A stretch of DNA of 64,000 nucleotides from Candidatus Nomurabacteria bacterium (GTDB lineage: Bacteria; Patescibacteriota; Minisyncoccia; Phycocordibacterales; UBA5272), in assembly GCA_029288775.1 (NCBI GenBank), contig JARIGQ010000006.1:64120-128119 (forward strand), given 5' to 3'. This document shows, piece after piece, positions 3,893 through 62,796 of this stretch. A program made the translations under genes and the position numbers. Within the stretch, counting starts at the first letter, position 1; every line of letters begins with the position of its first letter. The notes beneath the pieces are model-generated. The model saw only the letters and a list, made by a program, of their open reading frames with translations, made no database searches and was not told the DNA's origin.

Positions 3893-3903
3893 GGTAAGGA
3901 AAA

Positions 3904-4584: not shown

Positions 4585-4588
4585 TACT

Positions 4589-6264: not shown

Positions 6265-6312
6265 AAAAGATACATTATCTTCAACTCCTCTTATTATCCA
6301 AGTAAGAAAAAA

Positions 6313-6642: not shown

Positions 6643-6693
6643 TTTACAAAGTAAAGTAACTAATTTACACTGAACCTATTACTTACTTTAATT

Positions 6694-7233
6694 TTGGAAA
6701 CTATGAAAACTTTTATTGCATTTTCGGGAAGTTTGCGAAAAGACTCGTTCAACACCAACCTTTTAAAAGCTGCTCAGGAGCTTGCTCCCGAAGGAGTAAC
6801 GATTGAAATGGTAGATATTTCTACCTTTCCACTTTATAACCAGGATGAGGAAGGAACATATCCTGCTCAGGTGCAAGCGGTAAAAGATAAAGTGCTTGCC
6901 GCGGATGGAATTATTTTTGCAACTCCTGAATACAATCGCTCTATTCCGGGTGTGCTTAAAAATGCCATTGACTGGATTTCACGCCCATATGGCACGAATC
7001 CGTTTGCAGGGAAACCAACGCTGATTATGAGTGCTTCCGGGGGGCCGCTTTCGGGCGCGCTTGGTAACTATCATCTTAAGCAAGTGATGCTTTATTTGGA
7101 TGCGCACATTCTTGGCCAACCGGAGTTTTTCCTAGGCGGAGCCGGAAGCAAATTCGGTTCAGATGGGAAACTTACCGATGAAGATACCAAGGCTCATATC
7201 ACAAAGGCTCTGCAAGCTCTTATCAATCGATAA
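6694..7233 (+). CDS. NAD(P)H-dependent FMN reductase
   Basis: FSGSLRKDSFNTNLL...ATPEYNRSIPGVLKNAIDW; divergent from the HxlR regulator, a classic pairing. Confidence 0.75.
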   Translation: METMKTFIAFSGSLRKDSFNTNLLKAAQELAPEGVTIEMVDISTFPLYNQDEEGTYPAQVQAVKDKVLAADGIIFATPEYNRSIPGVLKNAIDWISRPYGTNPFAGKPTLIMSASGGPLSGALGNYHLKQVMLYLDAHILGQPEFFLGGAGSKFGSDGKLTDEDTKAHITKALQALINR

Positions 7234-15291: not shown

Positions 15292-15363
15292 GAAAGCGTA
15301 GTCTAGTTCCTAGACTTGTTGCAATTCGCTAACAAGAGCCACATTTGCAAAGAGAGGGTTCTC

Positions 15364-16503
15364 ATGGAATATCCTGGTAAAGGTGCGTTTAGTAAGTCCG
15401 ACTTGCAAGATTTGATTGCCGCAGAGCGGATTAAGACGCTCCCAGGCTTCGAAGGGAAGCATGTTGGGCCTGCGTCGATTGATATTACCGTCTCAAGCGA
15501 GGAGGTATATCAAGTCTCTCAGCTTTTGCGGCCCAGCGGCAAGCGCCGCGAGAAGGTGAGAGACATGCTTAAAAGCTTGGATGCCAAGCGGGTGAGGATG
15601 GGTTCGGTCCTTGGTACTGGTCACAAGTACGTTGCTAAGGCAACCGTAAATGGTAACTTCCCCGCAGGGTTATACGGGTATAGTAATGCCAAGTCCACAA
15701 GTGGGCGCAACATGTGTCTGTGCCGGACGATCGCCGACGAGGTCGAAGGGTTCGATACCCTTGATCGCCGTTGGGAAAATTGGACGGGAGAAATTTGGTT
15801 GACGATTGAACCGTTTGTGTTCCCTATCGTTCTTACGGATAAGGAGTGTTACGCACAAATCCGCATGTTCGACGGAGATACTCGGTTCCATGAGTCCGAC
15901 CTGAAGAAGGAGTTACAAAAACGAGATTTCCTTTTTAAGCAGGACGGGAGCCGGTACAACTTAGGCGAGCTCGAGTTGACAACAGGTGACGGCACGATTT
16001 TTACCACCCTATACGCGAAGGCGGGTAGGTTGGTGGGATTCAAGGCGAAGCGCACGCTTGAGCCGCTCAATCTGACTGCGCGCGGACTTCACCCAGAAAG
16101 CCATTTCATTCCGGTCTATGCCGAAAAGGACCCCACGGATCCTGATGGGGGAATGGTCACGCTTGAGGCAGGGCATTTCTACTTGCTCTCGACCAACGAG
16201 GTTCTTGATGTTCCAGAGCATCTTTGCGCAGAGCTGGTTGCACTCCATCCGCGCCTTGGATTGTTCTTCTCCCATTTTGCTGGGTTCTTCGATCCGGGAT
16301 TTAAGGGAGTACCTACCCTTGAAGTGACACCCATCATCAGGACTACTTTGCGTCACCGTGAGGCCGTCGGGTGCTTCCGTTATGAGCGGATGCGTTCAAA
16401 GACGGAGTCATACGCGGTTGTCGGTAACTACAGTGGGCAAAAGAGAACCACGCTTCCGAAGCAGTTTCATCTGCCCAGAGATTGGCACGATGCCATGGCC
16501 TGA
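15364..16503 (+). CDS. long-form 2'-deoxycytidine 5'-triphosphate deaminase-like protein (PF06559-like, dUTPase-fold C-terminus)
   Basis: C-terminal HFAGFFDPGFKGVPTLEV matches the HYAGFFDPGF signature of long DCD proteins; 52-55% GC; AGAGAGGG SD 5 nt before the ATG at 15364. Confidence 0.55.
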   Translation: MEYPGKGAFSKSDLQDLIAAERIKTLPGFEGKHVGPASIDITVSSEEVYQVSQLLRPSGKRREKVRDMLKSLDAKRVRMGSVLGTGHKYVAKATVNGNFPAGLYGYSNAKSTSGRNMCLCRTIADEVEGFDTLDRRWENWTGEIWLTIEPFVFPIVLTDKECYAQIRMFDGDTRFHESDLKKELQKRDFLFKQDGSRYNLGELELTTGDGTIFTTLYAKAGRLVGFKAKRTLEPLNLTARGLHPESHFIPVYAEKDPTDPDGGMVTLEAGHFYLLSTNEVLDVPEHLCAELVALHPRLGLFFSHFAGFFDPGFKGVPTLEVTPIIRTTLRHREAVGCFRYERMRSKTESYAVVGNYSGQKRTTLPKQFHLPRDWHDAMA

Positions 16504-16556
16504 AGAGGCAGTAAGAGCTCCGAGAGGGGCTCTTTCTTTTTTGCTACACTGAGCGT

Positions 16557-16976
16557 ATGAAATTGAAAGTGAAAAGATTACATCCACAGGCTAAACTTCC
16601 TACACGTGCACACCATGATGATGGAGGTTTAGATATTTATTGTTGTGAAGAAGTAACGCTTCCTCCACATACTACTGTAAAAATTCCTACAGGCATTGCC
16701 TATGAATTGCCGGTTGGTTATTGTGCATTTGCATGGGATAAGTCTTCTATTGGCGCGAAAGGATTAAAAACACTTGGAGGCGTATTGGATGCGGGATACC
16801 GCGGGGAATTATTCATCCCGATGAGAAATCTCACTAATGAAAGTTACACGTTTGAAGCAGGACATAAAATCGCACAGATGGTAATTCAAAAAGTAGAACT
16901 CTGGGAGGTAGAAGAAGCGCACGAACTTTCTGAAACCGCTCGCGGAGAAGGAGGATTTGGAAGTACAGGGAAGTAA
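16557..16976 (+). CDS. dut: dUTP diphosphatase
   Basis: GVLDAGYRGEL and RGEGGFGSTGK motifs; AT-rich host-like composition. Confidence 0.85.
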   Translation: MKLKVKRLHPQAKLPTRAHHDDGGLDIYCCEEVTLPPHTTVKIPTGIAYELPVGYCAFAWDKSSIGAKGLKTLGGVLDAGYRGELFIPMRNLTNESYTFEAGHKIAQMVIQKVELWEVEEAHELSETARGEGGFGSTGK

Positions 16977-17423
16977 TTATCTTTTACTTAGCTCTCTTAT
17001 TGTGCCTATATATAACTGCTCGTAGGAAGTACCTTGAATGTTCTTATCTTTGGGGCCCAGGTGTACTTCTGTTTTTTCATCAATCCCCATCTTCATAAAT
17101 TGAGGCAAGATTTGTAGCACTTCTTGTCGTACCTTTTCATTAAATGCAAATCCTGCACCTTTGTAGCAATAGAGTCTATTTTCCTGCTTAAGAAAAAATC
17201 CGCGTATGTGTTCTTCTAAAAAACTGTGTAGAGAAGACTCCTCAACCCATCCTTCATCTTTGAACCATTCGATATGTGAACTTTGAATATTAGGAGGAGC
17301 AACTTCAAGCGCTCCATCTTTTATACAGAACATAATTCTCGATGTGTGGAAATCAATATCTTCAGGCCTTGTTTTGAGGAAATTTAAATCTGGAGCATCT
17401 TTCATGTCTAAAGTATAAAGCAC
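16977..17423 (-). CDS. hypothetical protein (host-like composition)
   Basis: 148-aa AT-rich ORF between dut and the GC-rich block; start may be the internal Met (MKDAPD). Confidence 0.4.
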   Translation of the reverse strand: MLYTLDMKDAPDLNFLKTRPEDIDFHTSRIMFCIKDGALEVAPPNIQSSHIEWFKDEGWVEESSLHSFLEEHIRGFFLKQENRLYCYKGAGFAFNEKVRQEVLQILPQFMKMGIDEKTEVHLGPKDKNIQGTSYEQLYIGTIRELSKR

Positions 17424-17471
17424 TTAAAGAAAAAGGCCCGCCAAGGGGCGGGCCTCGACTCGTTGACCTGA

Positions 17472-18533
17472 TCAGTCTTCGAGTGAAAGGATGAATTCGA
17501 CCATCTCCTGGTCACCACGGCAGCCCACGAGGAGTTGCTCCTTGGAGACCAGCTTGGTGAAGTCTCCTTCGTTGGGGATGGTTTTTCGCAGCTGGGTCCA
17601 GACGCGGGAGTAATTCCCCCACGAACCGTCGGGGTCGCCGTCCTCACGTGGGCGCACCGGGTGCTGCAGGGGAGACATGTGCCCATTCCCTTTCAGGTCT
17701 TGGGCCAGTTCGAGATCCTTCGCGAGTGCCCGGACGCCGTTATGGGTCAGATAGCTGGTCCGCGCGCATTTGCCGGCGGAGGCCCATGCGAGAACTCCTT
17801 CTTTCGGTTCCTCGGCACGGTCTTCCGGACGTATGTACGGAAGGTGCCATTGCCCGATTTGGAGTTCCGTGGGCTTGCTGTTCATCATCGCGTGAGCGAT
17901 GACGATGCCGAAGTCGTTGGCTTCAGGTTGCGCGTGTTCGCTGTTGCGGAGGCCGAAGAAGTTTCTCCAGTGCGTAGCAGTCACGATGACCGTGTGGAAC
18001 GAGTAGGGCTCGATCACGCGGTTGGCATGCTGCTTGTGGAGGCCTTGGTCCTGCTCGAACAGGAAGTGGGAGAGTCCGTACTTCCGGACGAGCTCGTCCA
18101 CCTGTTCGCACAACCATGCACCCTTGGCTGCCATGCCAGCTTTCTCGCTTGCTGCCAGGATTTCCTTGTGGCCGCCAGCCAGGTAGAACGCCTGGATGAC
18201 GGCGATGTCCCGGCCGACCAGCCAGTTGGCTACAGCCTTCTTCTGGTCGGAATCCGACAGGGATTCGCCGGCCTGCATCCCGGCCTTGTTGACCCCGAAC
18301 GAGTTGGGGACGTAAGGCCGTTCAAGCACGGCGATCAGCCGCTTGATCGTGGGCATGGCGCGCGAGCTTGCCGAGTTGCGCGAAAAGCGCGTGTGGGTGT
18401 TGAACTCTGCGAGGTAGGGTCGAGGAAACTCGACTTCCACCGAGCAGATTCGCGATCCGCGAAAAATGCTGTCGCAAATCATCTTTGCGGTGGCGCTTAC
18501 CTCGCGGTAAACGGACGGCGGGGTATAATCCAT
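17472..18533 (-). CDS. unknown 353-aa protein of the GC-rich deoxynucleotide island
   Basis: about 60% GC; AAGGAGAT SD 5 nt upstream; own terminator. The opposite-strand 345-aa ORF is an R/V/G-rich shadow. No TS, ThyX, radical-SAM or MTase motifs recognised. Confidence 0.5.
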   Translation of the reverse strand: MDYTPPSVYREVSATAKMICDSIFRGSRICSVEVEFPRPYLAEFNTHTRFSRNSASSRAMPTIKRLIAVLERPYVPNSFGVNKAGMQAGESLSDSDQKKAVANWLVGRDIAVIQAFYLAGGHKEILAASEKAGMAAKGAWLCEQVDELVRKYGLSHFLFEQDQGLHKQHANRVIEPYSFHTVIVTATHWRNFFGLRNSEHAQPEANDFGIVIAHAMMNSKPTELQIGQWHLPYIRPEDRAEEPKEGVLAWASAGKCARTSYLTHNGVRALAKDLELAQDLKGNGHMSPLQHPVRPREDGDPDGSWGNYSRVWTQLRKTIPNEGDFTKLVSKEQLLVGCRGDQEMVEFILSLED

Positions 18534-18738
18534 GAGATCTCCTTTTCCGTGATGGGGTGGAATGAGCTGTAACCAGCTTATCTAAATGTACAAGTTTGGA
18601 ATAGCTTTTACTAGATTGACAGAACGCGTGTTCTGTTCGTTTGTGGAGTTTCTTTCTTTTACATACACTCGGATAAAAGTTCTTTCTCTCAAGAAGGAAC
18701 ATCCTATTAACTATGCGCCTGCGGGCGAGGAGAGTGAC

Positions 18739-19437
18739 ATGGCCAAGGCTATTATTGCGATCGAAGGGTCTGACGGCGCCGGCAAGGAGACGCAGGCGGG
18801 ACTGCTTATGAAGTTCCTCCAGTCGCAGGGATATACCGTGGGGACGGAATCATTTCCCCGTTACAACAAATCGGTCGGCGGTATCTTTTTGTATGATGCC
18901 CTTAAGGGACCGGAGAAGGAGAAGTACGCCTTCTCGAAGCTTGATCCATATGACGCGAGCAAGCCCTACGCCATGGATCGTTCGGAGTCCCGCGGCATCA
19001 TCGAAGATCTCGTCGCGAAGCACGATGTGGTTGTCTTCGATCGTTACGTTGAGTCGAACTTGCTCCACCAAGGGGGCAAGCTCGCTACACCTGAAGAGCG
19101 TGTAGAATACGCGAATTGGTTGTTCCGGGAAGAATACGAAGGCAAGCGCGGTATCCCGCGCCCTGACTTCGTGATCTACCTCAAGATCCCGTTCTGGCTT
19201 TCGCGCGCCCGTGCGGAGCGGCGGTCGGCAAACGGCGGCCCCGCACTTGATGCGGTCGAGTCCGACATGGATTACGTGCGTAAGGGCCACGAAGGCGGCA
19301 TCTTCTATGCCGAGCATTTCGGTTGGGAAGTAGTGGAAGGCTTGGAGGACAAGCGCGAGCTCACCCCGGATGAAGTTCACCAGAAGGTGATCCGCCAGAT
19401 TACCCCTCGTCTTCTCGAAAAAGGGATCGAGATCTGA
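18739..19437 (+). CDS. thymidylate-kinase-like P-loop kinase (P-loop present, TREPGGT motif absent)
   Basis: IIAIEGSDGAGKETQ P-loop, DRYVESNLLHQGG (DRY/lid-like); GAGGAGAG SD before the ATG at 18739. Confidence 0.6.
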   Translation: MAKAIIAIEGSDGAGKETQAGLLMKFLQSQGYTVGTESFPRYNKSVGGIFLYDALKGPEKEKYAFSKLDPYDASKPYAMDRSESRGIIEDLVAKHDVVVFDRYVESNLLHQGGKLATPEERVEYANWLFREEYEGKRGIPRPDFVIYLKIPFWLSRARAERRSANGGPALDAVESDMDYVRKGHEGGIFYAEHFGWEVVEGLEDKRELTPDEVHQKVIRQITPRLLEKGIEI

Positions 19438-19557
19438 AGTAACACTATGGAAACCGGCCCACGGGGCCGGTTTTTTCTTTTCTCGACACATAAGGGAATG
19501 ATGTGATAGGGTGTCGTTAGTACATCCGTACTTTTTCTTTTGCGAAGGAGAAGATTC

Positions 19558-20127
19558 ATGAAGGGCAAGTTCATCGTCTTTGGCGGGGTGAAGTCCCCCT
19601 GGCCCACCATCGAGGTGGTTCAGGAACACGTTCGTTCGAGCGGTGTCGAAACCGTGATCACCAGAGAACCTGGAGGTACGCCCTTTGCGGAGAATATCCG
19701 CAAGCTCCTCCTGGAAGGTGATCATGGTGGCGATTACGGAATCGTGCGAAGCCTCACTCGTGCTGCGCGTATCGAACATGAGCGCAAGGTTGTGGAACCG
19801 GCGCTCGAGCGGGGAGAGCATGTGCTCTGCGATTCCACCGACTATACCAAGTTCCACGAATGGGACACGGTCGTTTCCGAGCAGAGCTTGATCCATTCAG
19901 GTTTCGATCGCGAATGGTTGGTTGGCAAACCGACAATGCTCATCCTGTTCACTCCCTCCGAGATGGATCCGCGGCTCAGGACCATCTTCAACAATGTGGG
20001 GTACACGATGAACACAGGATTCATTTCCTGGGAGACTCTTGTGTACTACGTGGATCCCGGCGACATCCATTCGGTGGAAACGATGTTGGAAGCCTTGAAG
20101 GACCATCTTGCTTTCGAAATCGCCTGA
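19558..20127 (+). CDS. thymidylate-kinase-like protein with degenerate P-loop (TREPGGT present)
   Basis: ITREPGGTPFAENIRKLL dTMP-binding motif but FGGVKSPWPT in place of the G-x-x-G-x-GK-S/T P-loop; AAGGAGAAG SD before the ATG at 19558. Confidence 0.5.
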   Translation: MKGKFIVFGGVKSPWPTIEVVQEHVRSSGVETVITREPGGTPFAENIRKLLLEGDHGGDYGIVRSLTRAARIEHERKVVEPALERGEHVLCDSTDYTKFHEWDTVVSEQSLIHSGFDREWLVGKPTMLILFTPSEMDPRLRTIFNNVGYTMNTGFISWETLVYYVDPGDIHSVETMLEALKDHLAFEIA

Positions 20128-20203: not shown

Positions 20204-21904
20204 ATGAATTCCTATTCGGTTATCTATGAGGCGCTTGTAGACCTCTGCAAAAAACAGGGACTTATTGCCTCGTTTTCGCTTGATCAGCCCGACTTGGCGG
20301 AGCATGGTGATTATGCGACCAATATCGCTTTTACGCTTTCTAAATCACTCGGCAAATCTCCAAAAGAAACTGCAGACACCATTGCCATAGAGTTAGCAGC
20401 TTCACTTGAAGACACAATTGAAAAGATAGAGGTTGCTGGCCCTGGATTCATTAATTTCTTTTTGAAGGACGATGTTCGTACGGATGAAGCCGAAGCAGTT
20501 GCGGTAAGCGATATAGTAAATGAGAAAGGAAAAGGGAGCGTGCTTGTGGAATATACCGATCCAAATTGCTTCAAGGTATTTCATATCGGCCACTTGATGG
20601 CAAATACAATTGGTGAAGCAATAGCACGGCTCTATGAAGCAAGTGGGTATGACGTCCTGCGTGTATGTTATCCCTCCGATATTGGGTTAAACGTTGCCAA
20701 GGGTGTGTGGGGTGTTATGCAATTAGCCTCCGAAAAGCCCGATGAAAGTGCTTCGCTTAAAGAAAAAGTTGCTTTCTTAGGGAAAGCTTACGCGTATGCT
20801 CATCAAAAGTATGAAGAAAGCGAAGAAAATAAGCAGGCGATTGTAGAGGTGAACAAAGCTATCTATGCCGGAAACGACGCACAAGTAATGGGGGTGTATG
20901 CGGAAGGTCGGGCGCTTTCTTTGGAATATTTTGAAACCCTGTACGCAATGCTTGGAACAAAGTTTGATGCATACGTATATGAATCTGAAGTTGCAGATCC
21001 AGGAAAGGTGATTGTGAAAGCGTACATGGGAAGCATTTTTGAAGAATCTGAAGGAGCAATTGTATATAAAGGGGAGCAAGACGGATTACATACCAGAGTG
21101 TTTATTAATTCTGTGGGACTCCCTACATATGAGACCAAAGATATTGGCAACTACGAAAGGAAACTTTCTCTTCTTCCAAATGCGGATAGATATGTGGTAG
21201 TAACCGCCCAGGAGCAGGCCGAATATTTTAAGGTGATCAACAAAGTGGAAGAAAAACTCCACCCTGAGCTTACCGGAAAGCTGGTGCATATTAGTCATGG
21301 CATGATGCGTCTTGCATCCGGTAAAATGTCATCCCGAACAGGGAACGTAATTGGTGGGGAAGATTTGATTGATAAGATCAAGGAAGTGCTTTCTGCGCGA
21401 TTGGAAGATATGAAGGTAGAGGAAATAGATAAACCAAAACTTCTCAACGATATTGCAGTTGGTGCAGTGAAGTTTTCCATACTTAAGCAAGCACCGGGAA
21501 AAGATACGGTATTTGATTTTGAAAAATCTATCTCGTTTGAGGGGGACTCCGGTCCGTATTTGCAGTATACGCACGCTCGTATATGTGCGCTCTTGGATCG
21601 GGCGGAGGAGGTGGGGATTGATATTGAAAGCTATGCAATAGAACATCCAGAACGAGAACTTGAACAGGTAATCATTGGTTATAATCAAGCACTTGAAAAG
21701 GCATGTACGGAACTTGCCCCTCAATCAATTTTGCAACATCTTCTTAAGCTTACGCGCGCATTTAATAATATGTACGGCCGCGAGCAGATCATTCGCGATG
21801 ATAAGGAATTAAGTGCGTATTATATGATGCTTACGCAAGCGACAAAAAACATTTTAGGTCACGGACTTTCGACGCTTGGTATTGTGGCTCCGGAGAGGAT
21901 GTGA
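20204..21904 (+). CDS. argS: arginine--tRNA ligase
   Basis: 566 aa, HIGH-region FHIGHLMANTIGEAI and C-terminal DALR anticodon-binding region. Confidence 0.9.
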   Translation: MNSYSVIYEALVDLCKKQGLIASFSLDQPDLAEHGDYATNIAFTLSKSLGKSPKETADTIAIELAASLEDTIEKIEVAGPGFINFFLKDDVRTDEAEAVAVSDIVNEKGKGSVLVEYTDPNCFKVFHIGHLMANTIGEAIARLYEASGYDVLRVCYPSDIGLNVAKGVWGVMQLASEKPDESASLKEKVAFLGKAYAYAHQKYEESEENKQAIVEVNKAIYAGNDAQVMGVYAEGRALSLEYFETLYAMLGTKFDAYVYESEVADPGKVIVKAYMGSIFEESEGAIVYKGEQDGLHTRVFINSVGLPTYETKDIGNYERKLSLLPNADRYVVVTAQEQAEYFKVINKVEEKLHPELTGKLVHISHGMMRLASGKMSSRTGNVIGGEDLIDKIKEVLSARLEDMKVEEIDKPKLLNDIAVGAVKFSILKQAPGKDTVFDFEKSISFEGDSGPYLQYTHARICALLDRAEEVGIDIESYAIEHPERELEQVIIGYNQALEKACTELAPQSILQHLLKLTRAFNNMYGREQIIRDDKELSAYYMMLTQATKNILGHGLSTLGIVAPERM

Positions 21905-21944: not shown

Positions 21945-22140
21945 ATGGCGATGACGGGAGTAATCACCCCTGAGCTTCGGGAAGAAAGTCGAAAGGCAAG
22001 TAGAACCCAGTGAATGAGGTCCAAGAAGGGAAACCGACGAGGACAAATCAAGGTGGTACCACGGGAATCTTTTGAAACTCGTCCTTGGAAAGCAATATCA
22101 AACATTGCTTCTCAAGGACGAGTTTTTATTTTTAATTACA
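21945..22140 (+). promoter_or_regulatory. T-box riboswitch leader with terminator, upstream of ileS
   Basis: AAUCAAGGUGGUACCACGGG (22046-22066) matches the T-box consensus AGGGUGGNACCGCG; followed by the terminator CTCGTCCTTGG...CCAAGGACGAG + T-run (22078-22140); promoter TTGCAC-16-TAGTAT at 21910-21937. Confidence 0.55.
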
Positions 22141-22145
22141 AACAT

Positions 22146-25100
22146 ATGAACGATACACCCAAATCAATAAACGAAAAGGAACTAGAAACGCTTGCGTTCT
22201 GGAAAGAACATGCGATTTTTGAAAAGTCGGTGGAAACGCCAGCCGGGGATACACCCAAAGGATCCTTTTCATTTTATGATGGTCCACCATTTGCAACAGG
22301 TACTCCGCATATGGGGCATATTTTGGCTGGAACAATTAAGGATGCAATTCCGCGGTACCAAACGATGAAAGGTAATTCCGTCCGCCGTGTATGGGGATGG
22401 GATTGCCATGGGCTTCCAATTGAAAATTTGATTGAAAAGAAGCTCGGTCTTCAGTCAAAGAAAGATATTGAAAGCTTCGGTATAGATAAGTTTAATCGTG
22501 ACGCGTTTGAGTCAGTGCTTCAATATGAAGAGGAATGGAAGAAGGCAATTCCTCGATTGGGTCGTTTTGTAGATATGGAGCATCCCTACAAGACGATGGA
22601 TTGGAGTTATACCGAAAGCGTATGGTGGTCATGGAAAACTTTGTATGAAAAGGGGCTTGCTTACGAAGGGAACAAAATGATGCATATTTGTCCTCGTTGC
22701 GAGACACCGCTTGCACAATCTGAAGTAGGACTTGAATATCATGATGTTACTGACCTTTCGGTGACGGCAAAATTTGAGCTAGTGGATGAACCGGGAACAT
22801 ATGTACTTGCGTGGACAACAACGCCGTGGACTCTTCCGGGGAATACGGCACTTGCTCTAAAAGAGGATGCTCACTATGTAAAGGTTTCCATTGAAGGAAT
22901 GGGAGGGCTGTATGTGCTCGCTCAAGAAAGAATAGAAGAGGTGCTTAAAGAAATGAAGTACGAAGTGCGGGATACTTTTGTTGGCAGTTCACTTATCGGT
23001 AAATCATATAAGCCTGTATTCCCTTATTTTATAGACAAGAATATTGAAAACAAGGAACAGATCTGGAAGATTTGGCATGCAGAATTCATTACTCTTGATA
23101 CTGGAACTGGTATCGCCCATGAAGCTCCTGCTTTTGGTGCCGAAGATATGGATCTTGCAAAAGCACACACCATTCCCGTGATCAAGCATGTGAAGATGGA
23201 CGGAACGTTTACTGAGGATGTGACAGATTTTGCTGGCATGAAAGTGAAGGTTAAGGACGATACGCAATCTGCTGATATTGAGATCATTAAATATTTGGCA
23301 CACAACGGTTTGCTTTTCGAAAAGCATAAAATCGTCCACTCCTATCCACTCTGCTGGCGATGCAAGACTCCGCTTCTTAATTACGCGACATCGTCTTGGT
23401 TTGTGGATGTGCCAAAGATGAAGGAAAAGCTTTTAAATGAAAATCAAAAAATTGGTTGGACTCCAGACCATATTCGCGAGGGGCGATTTGGGAGATGGCT
23501 TGAAGGCGCACGGGAATGGGCCGTATCACGCTCGCGTTATTGGGGTGCGCCGCTTCCTGTGTGGAAGTCCGCTTCAGGTGACGTGAAAGTCATTGGCAGC
23601 TTAAAGGAGCTTGCGACCCTTTCTACAAAAAAGTCGAAGAATACTTATTTTGCAATTCGACACGGTGAAGCAAAGAGTAATATCGATAATATGCTCGATA
23701 GTTATGGTGATAAGAATAATCATCTGACGGATTTGGGTAAGGAACGCGCACGACATGCGGGACATTTTGCAAAAGAACAGGGAATAGATCTTATTATTCA
23801 TTCACCACTTCTACGTACGAGGGAAACGGCAGGCATCATTCATGAAGCGTGCGGCGCCTCCACAGTGGAAGATGTTCGACTGCAGGAATTCCAAGGAGGA
23901 ATCTTTTCTGGAAAACCTATTCACGAGCTCCGTTCATTTCAGCATTCCTCGACTTTCACCTTTGACTCCAAAGTGGAAAATGGAGAATCATATCGCGAAG
24001 TTATGCATCGTGTCATGTCACTTCTTCATGAGTGCGAAACAAAGTACAAAGGAAAGAAGATTCTTTTTGTGACTCATGGTTCTCCACTCTGGATGCTTCA
24101 AGCGGGAGCAGAATTAAAGACCGATGAGGAGCTTTATGGGGAAATTGCTTCCCATGAAGATACGTCTCCTGCCCACGCGCACGTCATTCCGATTAAGCCG
24201 CTTCTTGTGCCTCGAGATGAAACTGGTGCAATTAACCTTCATCGCCCGTATATTGATGAAGTTGAGTTAGAGATAGAAGGGAAGCTGTATAGGCGTATTG
24301 GAGATGTCTTTGATTGCTGGTATGAATCAGGCTCCATGCCGTTTGCGCAACTCCATTACCCCTTTGAGAATAAAGAGGTGTTTGATAAAAATTTCCCGGC
24401 AGACTTTATTGCTGAAGGGTTGGATCAGACCCGTGGGTGGTTCTATTCGCTGATTAATCTAGGGGTGGGCCTGTTTGATAAGGCTCCTTATAAGCATGTC
24501 ATTGTAAATGGTTTGGTGATGGCTGAAACTGGGCAAAAGCTCTCTAAAAGTGAAAAAAATTATACCGATCCCATGGAGCTTGTGGCGCGCTATGGAGCGG
24601 ATGCGGTGCGTTATGCTTTGCTTTCTTCACCAGTTGTAAAAGGGGAGAATGTTCAGTTTGGTGATAAAACAGTAGAAGATGTATATAAGAAGGTTATTCA
24701 GCGTTTGGAAAATGTCGTGTCTCTTTATGAAATGAATAAAGATACCTCCTACGAAGCAAACCCTGCTTCTCGTAATGTGCTTGATAGATGGATCGTCTCT
24801 CGTGTACATGAGCTCGTAGCAAGGGCAACTAAAGGATATGATACGTATACGCTTGATGAAGCAACCTACCCGCTTGATCAGTTCGTAGATGATTTGTCTG
24901 TATGGTATGTACGTCGCAGTCGAGATCGTCTTAAGGGGGATACCGGGGAAGAGGACAAAAGACTCTCTTATGAAACACTCACGTATGTATTGATCACGGT
25001 TGCTAAAGTGATTGCTCCCGTTATGCCATTTTTAGCGGAACGTTTGTATCAAACGGTGTGTACAGCTCGAGAGTCGGTGCACCTTGAAAGCTGGCCAGAG

Positions 25101-25574
25101 AGCGGAGTAATAGAGGAAGATGTTCTTACAGAAATGAGAAAAGTGCGGGAGGTTGTAACTCAAGCGCTTGCCAAGCGTACCGAAAGTAAGATTGCTGTCC
25201 GTCAACCGCTCGCGAAACTTACTGTTAAAGAAACAATCCATAAGGAGTATGAAGCAATTCTTCTTGATGAACTTAATGTTAAAGAGCTTGCAATCGATTC
25301 TTCGCTTGCCGAGCCATGTGTACTCGACACTGCACTTACTGAGACGCTCAAGCAAGAAGGCGACGTACGTAATCTTATGCGTGCAATTCAGGACGCTCGC
25401 AAGGAAAAGGGTCTTACCCCTAAGGATACAGTGACGCTGAGTGTTTCGTATACTGTACCAGATGCATTTAGGGACATGCTGATGGCTACTTGTCGTGTAG
25501 TTGCAATTGAAGAAGGTGAAGGTCCGTACGGAGCGGAAACATCTCAAGGAAGAATAACCTTCGATCTTCGTTAA
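22146..25574 (+). CDS. ileS: isoleucine--tRNA ligase, eukaryote-like type 2, with an inserted histidine-phosphatase (PGAM-like) domain
   Basis: FYDGPPFATGTPHMGHILAGTIKD is nearly identical to the human IARS motif; WTTTPWTLPGNTALAL editing domain; KLSKS; about 190-aa insert (RHGEAKSN...LLRTRETA...VTHGSPLW) between the catalytic core and ...GDVFDCWYESGS. Confidence 0.9.
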   Translation: MNDTPKSINEKELETLAFWKEHAIFEKSVETPAGDTPKGSFSFYDGPPFATGTPHMGHILAGTIKDAIPRYQTMKGNSVRRVWGWDCHGLPIENLIEKKLGLQSKKDIESFGIDKFNRDAFESVLQYEEEWKKAIPRLGRFVDMEHPYKTMDWSYTESVWWSWKTLYEKGLAYEGNKMMHICPRCETPLAQSEVGLEYHDVTDLSVTAKFELVDEPGTYVLAWTTTPWTLPGNTALALKEDAHYVKVSIEGMGGLYVLAQERIEEVLKEMKYEVRDTFVGSSLIGKSYKPVFPYFIDKNIENKEQIWKIWHAEFITLDTGTGIAHEAPAFGAEDMDLAKAHTIPVIKHVKMDGTFTEDVTDFAGMKVKVKDDTQSADIEIIKYLAHNGLLFEKHKIVHSYPLCWRCKTPLLNYATSSWFVDVPKMKEKLLNENQKIGWTPDHIREGRFGRWLEGAREWAVSRSRYWGAPLPVWKSASGDVKVIGSLKELATLSTKKSKNTYFAIRHGEAKSNIDNMLDSYGDKNNHLTDLGKERARHAGHFAKEQGIDLIIHSPLLRTRETAGIIHEACGASTVEDVRLQEFQGGIFSGKPIHELRSFQHSSTFTFDSKVENGESYREVMHRVMSLLHECETKYKGKKILFVTHGSPLWMLQAGAELKTDEELYGEIASHEDTSPAHAHVIPIKPLLVPRDETGAINLHRPYIDEVELEIEGKLYRRIGDVFDCWYESGSMPFAQLHYPFENKEVFDKNFPADFIAEGLDQTRGWFYSLINLGVGLFDKAPYKHVIVNGLVMAETGQKLSKSEKNYTDPMELVARYGADAVRYALLSSPVVKGENVQFGDKTVEDVYKKVIQRLENVVSLYEMNKDTSYEANPASRNVLDRWIVSRVHELVARATKGYDTYTLDEATYPLDQFVDDLSVWYVRRSRDRLKGDTGEEDKRLSYETLTYVLITVAKVIAPVMPFLAERLYQTVCTARESVHLESWPESGVIEEDVLTEMRKVREVVTQALAKRTESKIAVRQPLAKLTVKETIHKEYEAILLDELNVKELAIDSSLAEPCVLDTALTETLKQEGDVRNLMRAIQDARKEKGLTPKDTVTLSVSYTVPDAFRDMLMATCRVVAIEEGEGPYGAETSQGRITFDLR

Positions 25575-26140
25575 TGGCAATTGAAAAGCATACAACTGAA
25601 GCGATAGTTATAGAGCATTTTGATCAAGGAGAACATGACCGGGTATATAAGTTATTTACTCGTGACTTCGGTTTGGTCATGGCTCATGCTAAAAGTGTTC
25701 GCAAATTAGAGAGTAAGCTCCGTGCCCACATACAACCGCGCAGTGTTACCCTGGTAACGCTTGTGCGTGGAAAGGAGGTATGGCGGCTTGTCGGTGCGCA
25801 AGAAGAAAAAAGCAGAGATACGTTTGGGGGTCTTGGGCTTATGGAAGCCTCGCTTCTTATTAAGCGCCTTATTCGCGGAGAGGGGGCACATAAATCTCTG
25901 TATGCTCGAATCTTGGAATTTGCTTCTGTGGAGTCTTCGCTCGACAAGCAAAAAGCACGTTTACTTTTATATTACTTCATGTTGGTTGAGCTTGGGTATG
26001 CTGATGCTAAAGTGATAGGGGCTAAAGATCTTAAAGAATATATTTCTTGGAATATGCAGGATATGTATACTCATCTTCTTCTTTCGTTTGAGGGTGTACG
26101 GAAACACGTGTATGAAGTGTTAAAAGAAATCCAATTGTAA
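25574..26140 (+). CDS. recombination protein RecO-like (short)
   Basis: EAIVIEHFDQGEHDRVYKLFTRDFGLVMAHAKSVRK...WRLVGAQE resembles the RecO N-terminal OB fold; start overlaps the ileS stop. Confidence 0.5.
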   Translation: MAIEKHTTEAIVIEHFDQGEHDRVYKLFTRDFGLVMAHAKSVRKLESKLRAHIQPRSVTLVTLVRGKEVWRLVGAQEEKSRDTFGGLGLMEASLLIKRLIRGEGAHKSLYARILEFASVESSLDKQKARLLLYYFMLVELGYADAKVIGAKDLKEYISWNMQDMYTHLLLSFEGVRKHVYEVLKEIQL

Positions 26141-26173: not shown

Positions 26174-28039
26174 ATGGATAACCAGGAAGATGAGGGGGCT
26201 CTGGAGTCACTTGAGTCAAAACTGTACGACCCTCGGGGAAAAATTGAAAACCTTACCTTTCACCACGTGCGAGACAGAAAGGAGAAAGAGCTTCCTACTT
26301 CATGGGGAGATGACGCTTTGGTTATACACGAATCAGAAGCTGAGAGCGGTCTTTCCTTTGGTGCCAAATTTTTAGTAGGAGCAGTCATTCTGCTTATCTT
26401 TGTGCTTGGTTTTGCAGCGTGGCGTGTTTTTTCAAATCGTAATGTTGTTTCAGATAAGAATATTGATCTTTCTTTAAACGTTGCGCCGTATGTGGATGGT
26501 GGAGAATCCACGCCACTTGTAGTGAACCTTACTAACAAAAACAATGTTCCTCTTGAAGAAGCCACTCTTACCCTCATGTATAAGCAGGGAATAAGCGCGG
26601 AAGATGAAGAGGAAAAAATTCAAGAAAAGGAATCCTTGGGAACTATTAATTCCGGAGAGTTTAAGCAGCAAGATTTTGATATTCAGTTGTATGGGAGCGA
26701 AGCCGAAACTCGTGACGTAACAGTAAAATTGGATTACAAGGTAAAGGGCTCCAACGCAGTGTTTAGTAAAACTGGCGTAGCGCATGTTGTACTTAAGACA
26801 CCGCCACTTTCCATTCAGGTGAGCGGACCGAAATTACTTTCCGTGGGTCAGACTGGGACATATGTCTTTACGGTGTATAACACTACTGCAACCACAAGTC
26901 AGCCGGCATTACTTCAAGCGACACTTCCAACCACGTTCCATTTAAGTGAACAATCTCCAGTGCCAAGTAATGCAAGAAATGAACTTTGGCCTATAGCGGC
27001 TCTAGCTCCCGGAGCGACAACTACTATTTCCATTACCGGAAGTTTGGGAGGCAACCAGGGTGAAACTGGCACCATAAAAGCGGCGGTTGGATCTCCTGGC
27101 GCTCAGCTTGCGTCGCTTGGTGTCGTCTATTCGTTGCAAACTTTTGATATCTCATTGAGAACCTCTCCACTCTCCACTTCATTTTCATTAGATACTCTAC
27201 GAGGCACAAGTGATACTTTGCTGTATGGTGACCGTGCAACTATTTCTATTCATTACAAGAATACGAGTTCGGACCCCATTCACGATACTCGTCTTGTGCT
27301 TTCCATTTCTGGAAACGCGCCGCTTATGAAAGGTGTTACTACCGATCGTGGGTATTATGATTCTTCGCAAGGAACCATTACCTGGGATAAGGCAACAGAT
27401 CCTCAATTCGGTGTCCTTGACCAAGGAGAAGAGGGAACGCTCATTGTAACCATTCCCATCGTGTCTTCTGGATCTAATTCTCCAAAACTTGAGCTTACCT
27501 TGGCAGGTGAGGGGACGCTTGCTTCACCGGATGATGTCACGACAACTATTTCTAAAACTTATGTTGTCCAAGGGAGTGCTAGTGTTTCCGGATCGGTGCA
27601 TTATAAAAATGCTCCGTTCCAAAATTCCGGACCCATTCCGCCACAGCCGAATGTGGACACTACGTATTCACTTCATTTTGGGGTTTCGGCTCAGAACGCG
27701 CTTCAAAACACCACTGTGTCTTTCATCTTACCGGCGTATGTAACATGGAAGAATCTTATCACTGGGGGCGCTAATGTGGCATACGATACCGGCACACGCA
27801 CGGTCACTTGGACAGTCGGCAATCTAGAAGCAGGAAAGACAACTGCAGTAGATATTGGCGTTTCGGTACGTCCTTCACAGGTGCATGTGGGTTCCATGCC
27901 ACCAATTACAAGCGGCATAGTACTTAATGCAGACGAAGTGGTTTCAAAGGCGCATATTAAGACCACACTCTCGCCTTTGACTACCTACATAAGTGGGGAA
28001 ACTTGGCCTACGGACCCTTCTACTGTGGTAGACAAATAG
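26174..28039 (+). CDS. membrane-anchored surface protein with repeated beta-sandwich (DUF11/CARDB-like) domains
   Basis: N-terminal TM, then about 550 aa of Thr/Ser/Gly-rich repeated modules. Confidence 0.4.
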   Translation: MDNQEDEGALESLESKLYDPRGKIENLTFHHVRDRKEKELPTSWGDDALVIHESEAESGLSFGAKFLVGAVILLIFVLGFAAWRVFSNRNVVSDKNIDLSLNVAPYVDGGESTPLVVNLTNKNNVPLEEATLTLMYKQGISAEDEEEKIQEKESLGTINSGEFKQQDFDIQLYGSEAETRDVTVKLDYKVKGSNAVFSKTGVAHVVLKTPPLSIQVSGPKLLSVGQTGTYVFTVYNTTATTSQPALLQATLPTTFHLSEQSPVPSNARNELWPIAALAPGATTTISITGSLGGNQGETGTIKAAVGSPGAQLASLGVVYSLQTFDISLRTSPLSTSFSLDTLRGTSDTLLYGDRATISIHYKNTSSDPIHDTRLVLSISGNAPLMKGVTTDRGYYDSSQGTITWDKATDPQFGVLDQGEEGTLIVTIPIVSSGSNSPKLELTLAGEGTLASPDDVTTTISKTYVVQGSASVSGSVHYKNAPFQNSGPIPPQPNVDTTYSLHFGVSAQNALQNTTVSFILPAYVTWKNLITGGANVAYDTGTRTVTWTVGNLEAGKTTAVDIGVSVRPSQVHVGSMPPITSGIVLNADEVVSKAHIKTTLSPLTTYISGETWPTDPSTVVDK

Positions 28040-29129: not shown

Positions 29130-30596
29130 ATGGATAAGCGTCCTTTTTTCATCACTACTGCTATCGCATACGCAAATGGTGCTCCGCATGTCGGGCATGC
29201 TTTTGAGTTTCTTTTGGCTGACGCAATCGCTCGCTATAAGCGTTTGGAAGGAAACGACGTTTATTTCATTACAGGTATGGATGAGCATGGACAGAAAATA
29301 GAACAGAAAGCCAAAGAACAAGGACTTGCTGTACAATCTTTTGTAGATGGATATGCGGAGGAGTTTAAGTCGCTTGATCGTGAATTGGGTATTTCGTATG
29401 ACTTTTTCGTACGCACAAGCGATATGGAGAAGCATTATAAGGGTGCCCAAGCATTATGGAAAAAGATTGCCGAAAAGGGGGATTTGGAAAAACGTTCCTA
29501 CAAAGCGCTCTATTGCGTAGGGTGTGAGGAGTTCAAGACCGAAAAAGATTTGGATGCGGAAGGACGTTGTCCACTTCATTTGAAAGTGCCGGAAGTAGTA
29601 GAGGAGGAAAATTATTTCTTCAAGCTTTCTCAGTACACTGAAATAATTAAGGATAAGATATTAACTGATGAAGTAAAGATTTATCCGCAGTCGAGAAAGA
29701 ACGAGATTTTAGCACTCCTTGAGCGGGGACTTGAGGATGTCTCTTTTTCTCGACCTACGACAAAAGTAGCCTGGGGGATTCCAGTTCCTGGTGACGATTC
29801 GCAGGTCATGTACGTATGGTGTGATGCGCTTGCAAACTATATTACTGCAATCGGCTACGGCACGGATACGTTTCGCGAAGATTTGTGGAGTAATGCCACG
29901 CATGTCATTGGTAAGGATATCCTTCGTTTTCATGCTGCTATTTGGCCAGGTATGCTTCTTTCAGCCGGACTTGCACTTCCTAAAAATATTATTGTTCACG
30001 GACATATCACCTCGGGCGGTCAGAAAATGAGTAAAACATTAGGTAATAGTATTGATCCAAAAGATGTTATTGAGCTCTTTAAACCTGTTGCAGGTGAGCT
30101 CGCTGGAGAAGCCGCGCGTTTTGTTTTACTTCATGAGGTCCCAAGTTTTAATGATGGTGATATTACGCTTGATTCCATCAAAAGCGCATACACAGGCCAT
30201 TTAGTAAACGGCCTTGGGAATCTTACGAGTCGTATTATGAAATTATGCGAAGTTCATAAAGATAAACTGACAGCACTCCCGTTTGAATTCAATGATAATT
30301 ATCCACATGAAGGGGATATTTGGGAATCTTTCACTGATTTTGATCCTAATCAAGCCCTCCATCTTGTAATGGATTATACAAAGCTTTTGGATGAAACTAT
30401 TCAGAAAGACGAAGCTTTCAAAGTAATTAAGCAAGACGAAGCGCGCGGATTAGAACTCATCAATGAACATAAGAAAAGATTAATGATGATTGCAACCATG
30501 CTGTATCCTTTTATTCCAAAAACTTCTCAAATTATTCTTGATTGTATTCGCGAAAACAAAATGCCTGAGAAGCCGCTGTTTGCACGGCTTCCATAG
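29130..30596 (+). CDS. metG: methionine--tRNA ligase (minimal core form)
   Basis: FFITTAIAYANGAPHVGHAFE HIGH region, CPLH zinc knuckle, KMSKTLGN. Confidence 0.9.
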   Translation: MDKRPFFITTAIAYANGAPHVGHAFEFLLADAIARYKRLEGNDVYFITGMDEHGQKIEQKAKEQGLAVQSFVDGYAEEFKSLDRELGISYDFFVRTSDMEKHYKGAQALWKKIAEKGDLEKRSYKALYCVGCEEFKTEKDLDAEGRCPLHLKVPEVVEEENYFFKLSQYTEIIKDKILTDEVKIYPQSRKNEILALLERGLEDVSFSRPTTKVAWGIPVPGDDSQVMYVWCDALANYITAIGYGTDTFREDLWSNATHVIGKDILRFHAAIWPGMLLSAGLALPKNIIVHGHITSGGQKMSKTLGNSIDPKDVIELFKPVAGELAGEAARFVLLHEVPSFNDGDITLDSIKSAYTGHLVNGLGNLTSRIMKLCEVHKDKLTALPFEFNDNYPHEGDIWESFTDFDPNQALHLVMDYTKLLDETIQKDEAFKVIKQDEARGLELINEHKKRLMMIATMLYPFIPKTSQIILDCIRENKMPEKPLFARLP

Positions 30597-43534: not shown

Positions 43535-43561
43535 CAAAAGTACGTTTGCTATACTGTGTGC

Positions 43562-62743: not shown

Positions 62744-62796
62744 CATGGAAACAAAAAGACGGGCAACTAATTGAGCGCGTCTTTTTGTTTTTACTT

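Follow-up and report, generated by a model that had tools for sequence, protein, structure and literature searches.

Introduction

Aminoacyl-tRNA synthetases are among the best-studied enzymes, and the lineage-specific additions known in them are mostly RNA-binding, editing-like or protein-interaction modules. An isoleucyl-tRNA synthetase (IleRS) with an added enzyme-type domain, in that case an N-acetyltransferase, has been curated as a family (NF040702, ileS_w_GNAT). In the mycobacterial RNase H/acid phosphatase (NF005567, Rv2228c type), a branch-1 histidine phosphatase (HP) is joined covalently to a nucleic-acid enzyme, and the Escherichia coli CCA-adding enzyme (Cca), which works on the 3' end of tRNA, carries an HD phosphatase/phosphodiesterase domain for which a role in mending damaged tRNA ends has been proposed. 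The small phosphatase PhoE (YhfR) of Geobacillus stearothermophilus (1EBB, 1H2E) is free-standing, and its own physiological substrate is unclear. As for IleRS itself, the solved enzymes have a CP3 subdomain of 50-70 residues, with or without a zinc knuckle (PMC7191050). A literature search that was thin on subscription journals returned no published account of a synthetase with a histidine phosphatase inside it or next to it.

The window analysed here, a stretch of 64,000 nucleotides from a Candidatus Nomurabacteria contig, encodes such a phosphatase inside an IleRS, and it departs from each of these systems. The solved type-2 enzymes (Priestia megaterium IleRS2, 8C8U; Thermus thermophilus IleRS, 1ILE; the yeast and Candida cytoplasmic enzymes) align on both sides of the insert, at about 1e-200, whereas the window IleRS has about 200 extra CP3 residues that form a second enzyme. 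The domain added in NF040702 has a GNAT fold and not that of an HP, and the window protein, which reaches 306 bits where the cut-off is 1999, is therefore not a member of that family. The HP half of NF005567 (profile positions 173-341) matches the insert with 74 bits, below the cut-off of 326, and it belongs to an end-to-end fusion with RNase H, in contrast to the nested arrangement in the synthetase. The HD domain of Cca offers a functional analogy for one candidate role of the HP, its fold being unrelated and metal-dependent.

Results

The synthetase gene, ileS::HP, lies on the plus strand at 22146..25574. The mechanical open reading frame (22014..25574, plus strand) is longer and encodes 1186 residues of a complete type-2 IleRS in a continuous frame; judging from the starts of homologues, whose consensus N-terminus (MN..PK.I.EKE.ETL) coincides with Met45 of the window protein, translation probably begins at nt 22146 and yields 1142 residues. 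An identical 1186-residue protein (P0163) is encoded on a 160.5-kb NCBI contig. The window protein exceeds the cut-off of the NCBIfam model for ileS (TIGR00392, 845.3 bits against 621.4), and Pfam finds in it a tRNA-synt_1 domain split in two (2e-132), His_Phos_1, Anticodon_1 and a C-terminal DUF5915. Among solved structures it matches IleRS2 8C8U (5e-211), human IARS1 (2e-204) and the T. thermophilus enzyme (4e-201), and also the isolated IleRS editing domains 1WK8 and 1WNY. The match to Staphylococcus aureus IleRS1 is weaker, 1e-92 against about 1e-200 for IleRS2 and the cytoplasmic IleRSs, in agreement with the eukaryote-like type-2 host named in the preliminary description. These alignments show that the protein is, as far as its sequence tells, a eukaryote-like type-2 IleRS with intact HIGH, KMSKS and editing motifs.

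The names and boundaries of the IleRS domains used below (CP1 to CP3 and the linker) are those of the papers on the yeast and Candida enzymes (PMC7955072, PMC7191050). The N-terminal part of the synthetase (22146..23612, plus strand) aligns with residues 9-474 of 8C8U. It contains, all on the plus strand, the HIGH motif of the first half of the Rossmann fold, here HMGH (residue 99; 22308..22319), the CP1 editing motifs WTTTPWT (residues 267-273, TTTPWT starting at 22815) and GTGIAH (residue 364, nt 23103), and the CP2-3 linker WAVSRSRYWG (residue 502; 23517..23546). This part also takes in the CP core, CP2 and, of CP3, the first hairpin and helix. The C-terminal part (24228..25574, plus strand) aligns with residues 485-892 of 8C8U and includes the return hairpin of CP3, LHRPYIDEVELEIEGKLYRRIG, placed by the same alignment, followed by the two motifs of the second half of the Rossmann fold on the plus strand, DCWYESG (residue 767, nt 24312) and KLSKS, the KMSKS equivalent (residue 842; 24537..24551). 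After the Rossmann fold come the anticodon-binding domain (Pfam Anticodon_1) and the C-terminal DUF5915 domain.

Upstream of ileS::HP, on the same strand, lies argS (20204..21904; Pfam tRNA-synt_1d, DALR_1 and Arg_tRNA_synt_N). A recO-like gene (25574..26140, plus strand; Pfam RecO_N) serves as the downstream synteny marker and is followed by a gene for a DUF11 surface protein (26174..28039; Pfam DUF11), an order also present in loci L001-L005 and L011.

Between the two parts of the synthetase lies the inserted module, which comprises residues 534-738 (about 205 residues; 23613..24227, plus strand). Its limits follow from its absence from 8C8U and from the IleRS of locus L011. About 10 residues of the solved structure (474-485) correspond to the 205 or so of the window protein, and the insert-less L011 enzyme (931 residues) lacks 200 residues at the same point. 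The preliminary description had placed an insert of about 190 residues at 23630-24220 and had suggested delimiting it by alignment with type-2 IleRSs; the two comparisons agree with it. The insertion point is inside CP3, about 23 residues past the CP2-CP3 linker that lines the pocket for the tRNA CCA end; CP3 itself is a small and variable segment that runs from this linker to the second half of the Rossmann fold. Pfam His_Phos_1 (PF00300) covers residues 547-700 (23652..24113) with 105.1 bits against a gathering score of 21.7 (E=4.9e-30), and the remaining tail, residues 701-738, is a helix/strand element that takes the chain back into CP3. The GC content of the insert is the same as that of its flanks. 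The window protein lacks the CP3 cysteines that many members of the family keep.

The AlphaFold2 (AF2) model of the insert is of high confidence (pLDDT 96.9, pTM 0.92) and packs confidently against the CP3 strands. Foldseek relates it with a probability of 1.0 to structures of PhoE, PspA, cofactor-dependent phosphoglycerate mutase (dPGM), Rv2419c and CobC, with TM-scores to the target of at most 0.76; the best TM-scores are to phosphatases of about 200 residues and not to dPGMs. With these E-values, this model and this Foldseek probability, a chance origin of the match is excluded. The best sequence match among solved structures is PhoE (E=1e-9), which is of the same size class of about 200 residues, aligns at the catalytic Arg-His, Arg, Glu and His, and gives a TM-score to the target of 0.71-0.76; it differs in being free-standing, where the window HP is nested in a synthetase subdomain, and the identity is only about 23%. 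Given that the physiological substrate of PhoE is itself unclear, the match transfers chemistry and not function. The curated models for other small HPs stay below their cut-offs (CobC TIGR03162, 71.8 against 162.9; PspA NF045917, 51 against 350; SixA TIGR00249, 32.3 against 74.5).

The RHGE motif (residues 549-552), the second arginine in LLRTRETA and the histidine of VTHG all stand where the preliminary description had put them, and each has its counterpart in PhoE. Arg549, His550 and Gly551 (23658..23666, plus strand) align with the RHG of 1EBB and 1H2E, His550 being the predicted phospho-acceptor nucleophile. The second phosphate-binding arginine, Arg601 (23814..23816, plus strand), lies in SPLLRTRETA (LLRTRE from residue 599), which aligns with SGRALETA of PhoE; the predicted general acid, Glu625 (23886..23888, plus strand), lies in RLQEF (from residue 622) and aligns with the glutamate of RLREI; and the distal His688 (24075..24077, plus strand) belongs to VTHG (from residue 686), which is identical in PhoE. 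The insert is thus a complete, independently folding histidine phosphatase domain of branch 1, nested in the synthetase and of the small PhoE type, as the earlier claim of a complete domain had it and as the structure prediction called for at that time bears out. From the residues it retains, the domain is very probably a catalytically competent phosphatase.

PF00300 was found in every one of the 120 nearest IleRS relatives (64-100% identity), which answers the earlier suggestion to look for the same insertion in CPR IleRSs. The size of the family was taken from an exhaustive search of representatives together with a full-length search; a word-index search with the insert alone gave five fragments and under-counts. 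About 96 of the best 150 representatives of 50%-identity clusters for the HP domain are IleRSs with the HP in the same place, and NCBI, JGI, ENA and Logan together supply over 120 protein clusters with the ileS::HP architecture, encoded on contigs of up to 1 Mb. The 96 embedded copies are only 30-45% identical to one another. Arg549 and His550 are conserved in 100% of them (n=92-93), as are Arg601 (n=95) and His688 (n=96), and position 625 is Glu in 94% and Asp in the remainder of the 96. Across 305 domains, tandem extras included, every complete copy keeps the Arg-His, Arg, Glu/Asp and His set with one exception, a free-standing copy that has Ser in place of the distal His. Between close relatives, identity in the HP core falls to 50%, against 80% for the IleRS catalytic domain. 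The HP domain is mildly acidic (median pI about 6.3).

The phosphatase also exists outside IleRS. In loci L011, L014 and L015/16 argS and ileS enclose a free HP gene, separated from its neighbours by 1-9 nt, and the IleRSs of L011 and L015, both complete genes, are insert-less with the HP gene adjoining. In L009 an argS-HP pair stands beside a convergent ileS, and in L018/19 ileS is followed directly by tsaC::HP, in which the HP is fused to tsaC. The insert-bearing loci (the window, L001, L002, L004 and L005) have the order argS-ileS::HP-recO and no free HP. In two of the six informative cases the free HP lies away from synthetases, near adk/secY (L006) and in an RNase T/NUDIX region (L013). 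In ValRS, 34 of 122 relatives have the HP, which has entered at two or more sites; its distribution is patchy among proteins 80-88% identical, and the ValRS insertion flanks the DTWF helix. A second insertion site in IleRS was seen on six contigs; some relatives have the HP fused to the C-terminus of ArgRS; and tandem copies occur, as do HP-HP proteins. Apart from these tandem HP-HP forms, IleRS, ValRS, ArgRS and TsaC were the only multidomain partners among the best 150 representatives.

These arrangements show that Parcubacteria have a conserved module of which ileS::HP is the fused version. In a large clade of Parcubacteria an IleRS with the insert is the norm, and the insert is one form of a wider association between phosphatases and synthetases. 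The insert-less IleRSs of L011 and L015 fall among insert-bearing ones in a neighbour-joining tree of the host enzyme, which hints at more than one transition between the free and the inserted state, in a tree that has no support values and is not relied on here. As a counter-point, operon adjacency may mean no more than co-transcription in genomes as compact as those of CPR bacteria.

Discussion

To judge from these genes, synthetases in a large radiation of uncultivated bacteria have recruited a catalytically intact-looking phosphatase repeatedly and independently. The pattern points to a partnership, so far undescribed, that links tRNA charging with a phosphatase. We propose that the insert is an active PhoE-like phosphatase that has been selected to work with IleRS and ValRS, and we would give this reading a probability of about one half. 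Functional coupling of the HP to the two synthetases, as opposed to mere co-expression with them, is in our judgement slightly better than an even bet, and the repeated independent physical coupling to both enzymes suggests that the HP serves the synthetase in cis.

An ordinary origin must be weighed against this proposal. The HP might be a housekeeping phosphatase for a small metabolite, ancestrally co-transcribed with argS and ileS, which became fused or inserted into permissive synthetase loops in drift-prone reduced genomes with no mechanistic consequence. We find this doubtful, although several observations speak for it: the closest solved relatives (PhoE, PspA, Rv2419c and CobC) are broad-specificity or small-molecule phosphatases, certain free copies are not beside synthetase genes, the HP evolves faster than the catalytic domain of its host, CP3 is structurally variable among IleRSs (PMC7191050), and the patchiness of the ValRS insert at 80-88% identity makes it dispensable for ValRS. 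However, a passive passenger would sit uneasily with the absence of any unrelated fusion partner among the best 150 representatives, with catalytic residues kept in all extra copies, and with an HP still beside ileS after rearrangement (ileS-tsaC::HP). It would also require that the HP had entered loops in the catalytic domains of IleRS and ValRS, in frame, on no fewer than four or five separate occasions, and such insertions are harder to obtain than end-to-end fusions. Use of the pocket for binding alone, with a phosphorylated ligand or the 5'-phosphate or backbone of tRNA held by an allosteric sensor or an extra tRNA-binding module for which turnover is irrelevant, seems unlikely to us. Elements of the active site (the CP2-3 linker and, in ValRS, the DTWF helix) do lie next to the insertion sites, the insert is packed confidently on CP3 (pTM 0.92), and a binding role would also conserve the phosphate-binding residues; but the general-acid Glu/Asp and the nucleophilic His, which binding alone does not require, are invariant as well, its acidity sets the domain apart from the tRNA-binding modules typically appended to proteins, and free-standing orthologues share the same residue profile.

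Two further readings are very improbable. The preliminary description had called the domain phosphoglycerate-mutase-like, which holds at the level of the superfamily, and one may ask whether the HP is the dPGM of the cell, moonlighting inside IleRS. Many dPGM structures match at Foldseek probability 1.0 and the dPGM_arch and GpmB models match weakly, but no curated cut-off for the dPGM families (TIGR01258, NF038349) or for GpmB is reached (dPGM_arch, 71.3 against 225; GpmB, 74.9 against 261; NCBIfam), TIGR01258 (pgm_1) is not among the 25 families listed for the window protein, and the best TM-scores lie elsewhere, as described above. Compared with the Schizosaccharomyces pombe dPGM (1FZT), E-R-Y-Y-G is replaced by E-F-Q-G-G, W-R-R has no counterpart and H-G-N has become H-G-S, and the mutase-specific positions are weakly conserved in the HP family. 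Moreover, one genome with ValRS::HP encodes an enolase and two cofactor-independent phosphoglycerate mutases next door. The missing substrate residues, the scores below cut-off and the genome context largely refute a dPGM identity. One could also think of a chimeric assembly, a wrongly called gene or an insertion of intein-like or mobile character, in view of the ValRS patchiness, the tandem amplification and a 13-nt imperfect direct repeat that flanks the insert in frame. That repeat is within chance expectation (about 0.3 expected, an estimate), and the composition equals that of the flanks; the breadth of the architecture over the four databases and the continuous frame refute the artefact. 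Pfam found no endonuclease or intein domain in the window protein, PADLOC gave no match that would link it to a defence system, and the only PHROG match is a family of unknown function.

Returning to a phosphatase that works with the synthetase, its chemistry would be the standard one of histidine phosphatases: Arg549, Arg601 and His688 would hold a terminal phosphoryl group for attack by His550, Glu625 would give a proton to the leaving group, and the phospho-histidine intermediate would then be hydrolysed. Most likely, the HP would clear a phosphate-bearing species that the ATP- and tRNA-dependent reaction either produces or is disturbed by. Candidate substrates are pyrophosphate, a phosphorylated adenine nucleotide and a tRNA end phosphorylated at the 2' or 3' position of A76, each of them improbable when taken singly. 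The conserved residues are generic to branch 1 and give no clue to specificity; the branch-1 enzymes Det1 and YOR283w strip phosphate from ATP and from a labelled DNA substrate (PMC2737285). The ileS-tsaC::HP genome encodes nearby a CCA-adding enzyme that has an HD domain, so that a tRNA-end phosphatase is not obviously needed there and the HP is not simply a replacement for the HD domain of Cca. The mildly acidic character of the HP does not favour extensive contact with RNA. As to pyrophosphate, no inorganic pyrophosphatase gene (ppa) was found in the window and 19 loci with E. coli Ppa as an approximate query, a sample too small to support the pyrophosphatase idea. The full-length AF2 model, built from 51 closely related sequences, has a pLDDT of 63 with the IleRS core below 50, too poor to orient the phosphatase pocket relative to the synthetic site or the tRNA.

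More speculatively, and only as a tentative extension, the IleRSs and ValRSs of Parcubacteria might possess a third catalytic site beside those for synthesis and editing, a built-in phosphatase acting on aminoacylation itself. Pyrophosphate or 3'-phosphorylated adenine nucleotides could then be cleared at the active site, or 2'/3'-phosphorylated or pyrophosphorylated A76 ends could be healed to make the tRNA chargeable. Nothing comparable to such a step in tRNA charging would exist in model organisms.

A mechanistic coupling would disclose a tRNA-charging need of reduced-genome episymbionts that is invisible in model organisms; the need could lie in removing a product, detoxifying nucleotides or repairing tRNA ends. 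The coupling would also provide a simple recombinant system for testing. If it is not mechanistic, ileS::HP would be a clean natural case of large enzymatic domains tolerated near the active site of a class I enzyme, of use in engineering synthetases and in the study of constructive neutral evolution in CPR genomes. NCBI records often name these proteins only 'class I tRNA ligase family protein' or 'hypothetical protein', and the annotation of the HP-bearing synthetases could be improved.

A predicted histidine phosphatase nested in a type-2 IleRS

The ileS::HP gene occupies positions 22014..25574 of the forward strand and encodes 1186 aa, numbered here from that start. About 100 homologues begin at the equivalent of Met45 (nt 22146, homologue consensus), so translation probably begins downstream of the annotated start and the true protein probably has 1142 aa. 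The 44 N-terminal codons (22014..22145), without counterpart in these homologues, also occur in an identical 1186-aa entry, P0163. The preliminary description had read a phosphatase domain inside IleRS, and this was borne out. Pfam returns the class I synthetase domain as two pieces, one on each side of the branch-1 histidine phosphatase domain His_Phos_1 (HP; aa 547-700, E=4.9e-30, 105 bits for a threshold of 21.7 bits) and also places an anticodon-binding domain and DUF5915 in the protein, which NCBIfam assigns as a whole to ileS (845 bits vs a cut-off of 621). A motif scan recovered the quoted motifs in place: WAVSRSRYWG (aa 502), RHGE (aa 549), LLRTRE (aa 599), RLQEF (aa 622), VTHG (aa 686) and DCWYESG (aa 767), all on the forward strand. 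The proposed alignment with type-2 IleRS was carried out to delimit the insert. The best solved relative, Priestia megaterium IleRS2 (8C8U), can be aligned before and after the insert, with about 10 of its residues opposite some 205 of the window protein; an insert-less IleRS of 931 aa (locus L011) has flanks 53% and 47% identical and exactly 200 residues fewer. The insert therefore spans aa 534-738 (nt 23613..24227, forward strand). A 13-nt direct repeat (12/13 identical; 23549..23561 and 24197..24209) brackets it, with copies exactly 216 codons apart that encode PLPV and PLLV; because by our own estimate chance alone would yield about 0.3 such pairs in the stretch, we treated it as a coincidence.

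We then asked where the insert lies within the synthetase. In yeast IleRS, ARDWNVSRNRYWG is the CP2-CP3 linker and part of the reveromycin A pocket, placed by the authors at the tRNA-Ile binding site; CP3 comprises residues 459-526, and the Rossmann fold starts again from 527 (PMC7955072). The homologous linker in the window protein is REWAVSRSRYWG. The insert starts 23 residues past this linker and ends about 25 residues ahead of DVFDCWYESG, distances that place HP inside CP3, as judged by homology after the first hairpin and helix and before the return hairpin. CP3 topology differs among Candida, Thermus and Staphylococcus IleRS, with a zinc motif in Thermus only (PMC7191050). The CxxC...C knuckle of CP3 is kept by many family members and lost from the window protein.

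The claim that the host is a eukaryote-like type-2 enzyme also held. The closest PDB matches (about 1e-200) are IleRS2, the human, yeast and Candida cytoplasmic IleRS and T. thermophilus IleRS, vs 1e-92 for S. aureus IleRS1. HIGH (HMGH), KMSKS (KLSKS) and the editing-domain WTTTPWT and GTGIAH motifs are all intact, and no second ileS was found within the 64-kb window. The host thus looks like a normal type-2 IleRS on sequence grounds.

The insert itself carries all the catalytic signatures that had been ascribed to it: its Arg-His pair, second Arg and distal His, and also the Glu, have aligned counterparts in PhoE, the nearest solved protein by sequence (1EBB/1H2E, E=1e-9). The structure prediction that had been proposed was run on aa 515-765 with 100 homologues and gave a pLDDT of 96.9 and a pTM of 0.92. 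Foldseek matched this model with a probability of 1.0 to PhoE, Rv2419c, CobC, the phosphoserine phosphatase of Hydrogenobacter and a large number of cofactor-dependent phosphoglycerate mutases (dPGMs); the top target-normalised TM-scores (0.70-0.76) belong to phosphatases of about 200 aa. The insert is thus a complete branch-1 histidine phosphatase domain.

Conservation of HP and its recurrence in other enzymes

Is the insertion a peculiarity of one genome? The search of CPR IleRS that had been suggested found PF00300 in 120/120 of the closest full-length IleRS relatives (64-100% identity), whose source names are Candidatus Nomurabacteria, Pacebacteria and Parcubacteria; five species-representative MAGs carry ileS::HP. 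An exhaustive insert-only search of 1.84 billion cluster representatives gave 7927 matches (E<=1e-3), and about 96 of the best 150 of these 7927 representatives are IleRS, complete or fragmentary, with HP at the same point and IleRS sequence on either side of it. Across a large clade the insert is the norm, and it is under selection. Among 96 embedded copies sharing 30-45% mutual identity, R549, H550, R601, H688, E658 and R666 are 100% conserved, E625 94% and N556 89%. In a set of 305 domains, which also counts the second to fourth copies of multi-copy proteins, R-H..R..E/D..H is present in every complete copy except one, a free-standing protein with Ser for the distal His. In close relatives the HP core falls to 50% identity vs 80% for the synthetase catalytic domain; the catalytic residues are thus retained against rapid sequence change. 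The domain is slightly acidic (median pI about 6.3).

The HIGH motif varies among IleRS::HP proteins: the window has the canonical HMGH (22308..22319), the L001 and L002 proteins HHGT, with the fourth His replaced, and those of L004 and L005 GIHH, a swapped GXHH motif, a swap reported to confer mupirocin hyper-resistance on IleRS2 (PMC10485003).

HP recurs in ValRS, in 34/122 close relatives (Magasanikbacteria/Parcubacteria group; the ValRS considered include P0283, at L017 6001..9423, P0101 and P0291-P0409). Thirteen of the 34 have it at the CP3-equivalent site, and roughly 20 in a loop about 20 residues past DTLDTWF. These proteins are intermixed with insert-less ValRS 80-88% identical to them, implying a recent gain or loss of HP. 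Several synthetases carry more than one copy, all with the RHG motif: a ValRS fragment of 1161 aa (P0007) has four, of which one occupies a third site, and among the IleRS there are proteins with tandem copies in CP3 and others whose second copy follows the stem-contact region, near window aa 905 (P0015, P0065, P0111, P0152; P0090, P0132, P0151). P0132, with HP at this second site, is found on six contigs of up to 1.06 Mb. One ArgRS bears a C-terminal HP. Another HP copy aside, the fusion partners among the best 150 of the 7927 representatives are IleRS, ValRS, ArgRS and TsaC only.

Gene order around ileS

The nearest free-standing homologues (185-205 aa, 36-40% identical) have the same conservation profile as the embedded copies, and we placed them on their contigs for comparison of gene order. 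Three loci (L011, L014, L015/16) read argS-HP-ileS with intergenic gaps of 1-9 nt, followed by recO and a DUF11 protein as in the window. The complete ileS genes of these three loci are insert-less (931 and 962 aa in L011 and L015/16); that of L014 ends at the contig edge. In L009, argS-HP adjoins a convergent ileS. In the window, L001, L002, L004 and L005, the order is argS-ileS::HP-recO-DUF11 and the free HP gene is absent. The inserted HP thus appears to correspond to the operon-encoded form, and in the sampled loci the two states exclude each other. The ArgRS-HP fusion is the outcome expected from stop-codon loss in argS-HP. In L018/19 (3116..7179) an insert-less ileS is directly followed by a tsaC::HP fusion (Sua5/YrdC, t6A synthesis), the two genes overlapping by one base, with tgt and the gene of an HD-domain CCA-adding enzyme at most 5 kb away. 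Two further free copies lie between adk and secY (L006) and in an RNase T/NUDIX region (L013).

Possible role of the nested domain

The analysis establishes the fold, the complete set of catalytic residues, the position within CP3, the breadth and conservation of the family, and the pattern of gene order and fusions. We infer that HP is a working phosphatase, selected for a physical or stoichiometric tie to IleRS and ValRS. In such an enzyme His550 would be the nucleophile, Arg549, Arg601 and His688 would hold the phosphoryl group and Glu625 would act as the acid. The main competing view is that of a housekeeping small-molecule phosphatase merely travelling with ileS. The generic, PhoE-like sequence, the free copies in L006 and L013 and the patchy, dispensable inserts of ValRS speak for it. 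However, the choice of partners is exclusive, several separate in-frame insertions have entered catalytic-domain loops, and the catalytic residues are preserved in every extra copy; we regard it as a serious but rather unlikely explanation.

A dPGM identity, which the fold matches might evoke, is weaker still and was rejected. Relative to S. pombe dPGM, residues specific to mutases are changed or lacking (ERYYG becomes EFQGG, HGN becomes HGS and the WRR pair is absent), and none of the curated NCBIfam models for dPGM, GpmB, CobC, PspA and SixA reaches its cut-off with the window protein. Moreover, in the ValRS::HP genome of L017, enolase and two iPGM genes lie directly upstream of the fusion gene. 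An artefact is excluded by the recurrence of the architecture in four data sources, and no support was found for a link of the insert to defence systems or mobile elements.

A tie to the synthetases, as we favour, leads to the question of the substrate. The four partner enzymes all use ATP, release PPi and AMP and act in tRNA charging or modification. This suggests four candidate substrates: PPi, phosphorylated adenine nucleotides, tRNA ends phosphorylated at the 2' or 3' position and a phosphorylated residue of the synthetase itself, each of them improbable when taken singly. Branch-1 enzymes can strip ATP of its terminal phosphate and take phosphate off a labelled DNA substrate (PMC2737285), so all four are chemically possible.

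Both parts of ileS::HP, PhoE-type phosphatases and type-2 IleRS, are already known, as are synthetases that have gained domains, inserted or appended, in particular lineages, for example the NCBI-curated IleRS with a GNAT domain; the mycobacterial RNase H-HP fusion is another case of HP joined to a different enzyme. In the literature searched, we found no description of HP nested in IleRS CP3, of its recurrence in ValRS or of a conserved argS-HP-ileS module. One JGI record is titled 'valyl-tRNA synthetase/broad specificity phosphatase PhoE'; the sequences are public, and the association seems to have gone uninterpreted. The recurrence of HP with an intact catalytic site would surprise a specialist, and the question is directly testable.

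Other features of the region

A metG gene (29130..30596, forward strand; Pfam tRNA-synt_1g) stands 3.5 kb downstream of ileS and encodes a methionyl-tRNA synthetase of just 488 aa; argS, ileS and metG thus cluster within 10 kb. Next come genes for an HD-domain YfbR-like nucleotidase and for TatD. Just upstream of argS, a nucleotide-metabolism cluster (15316..20127) comprises a dCTP deaminase-like ORF, a weak ThyX-like ORF on the reverse strand and two adjacent thymidylate-kinase-like ORFs. It coincides with a rise in GC (up to 0.555 at 18-20 kb vs about 0.44 elsewhere) and has long overlapping ORFs on both strands. Bacterial tRNA-Ile with a UAU anticodon is uncommon, AUA being usually decoded by a lysidine-modified CAU tRNA. 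The window has both tRNA-Ile(UAU) and tRNA-Ile(GAU) (43462..43535 and 62671..62744, forward strand); the former fits a type-2 IleRS, because eukaryotic-type IleRS recognises U34/pseudouridine-34 (PMC11685878).
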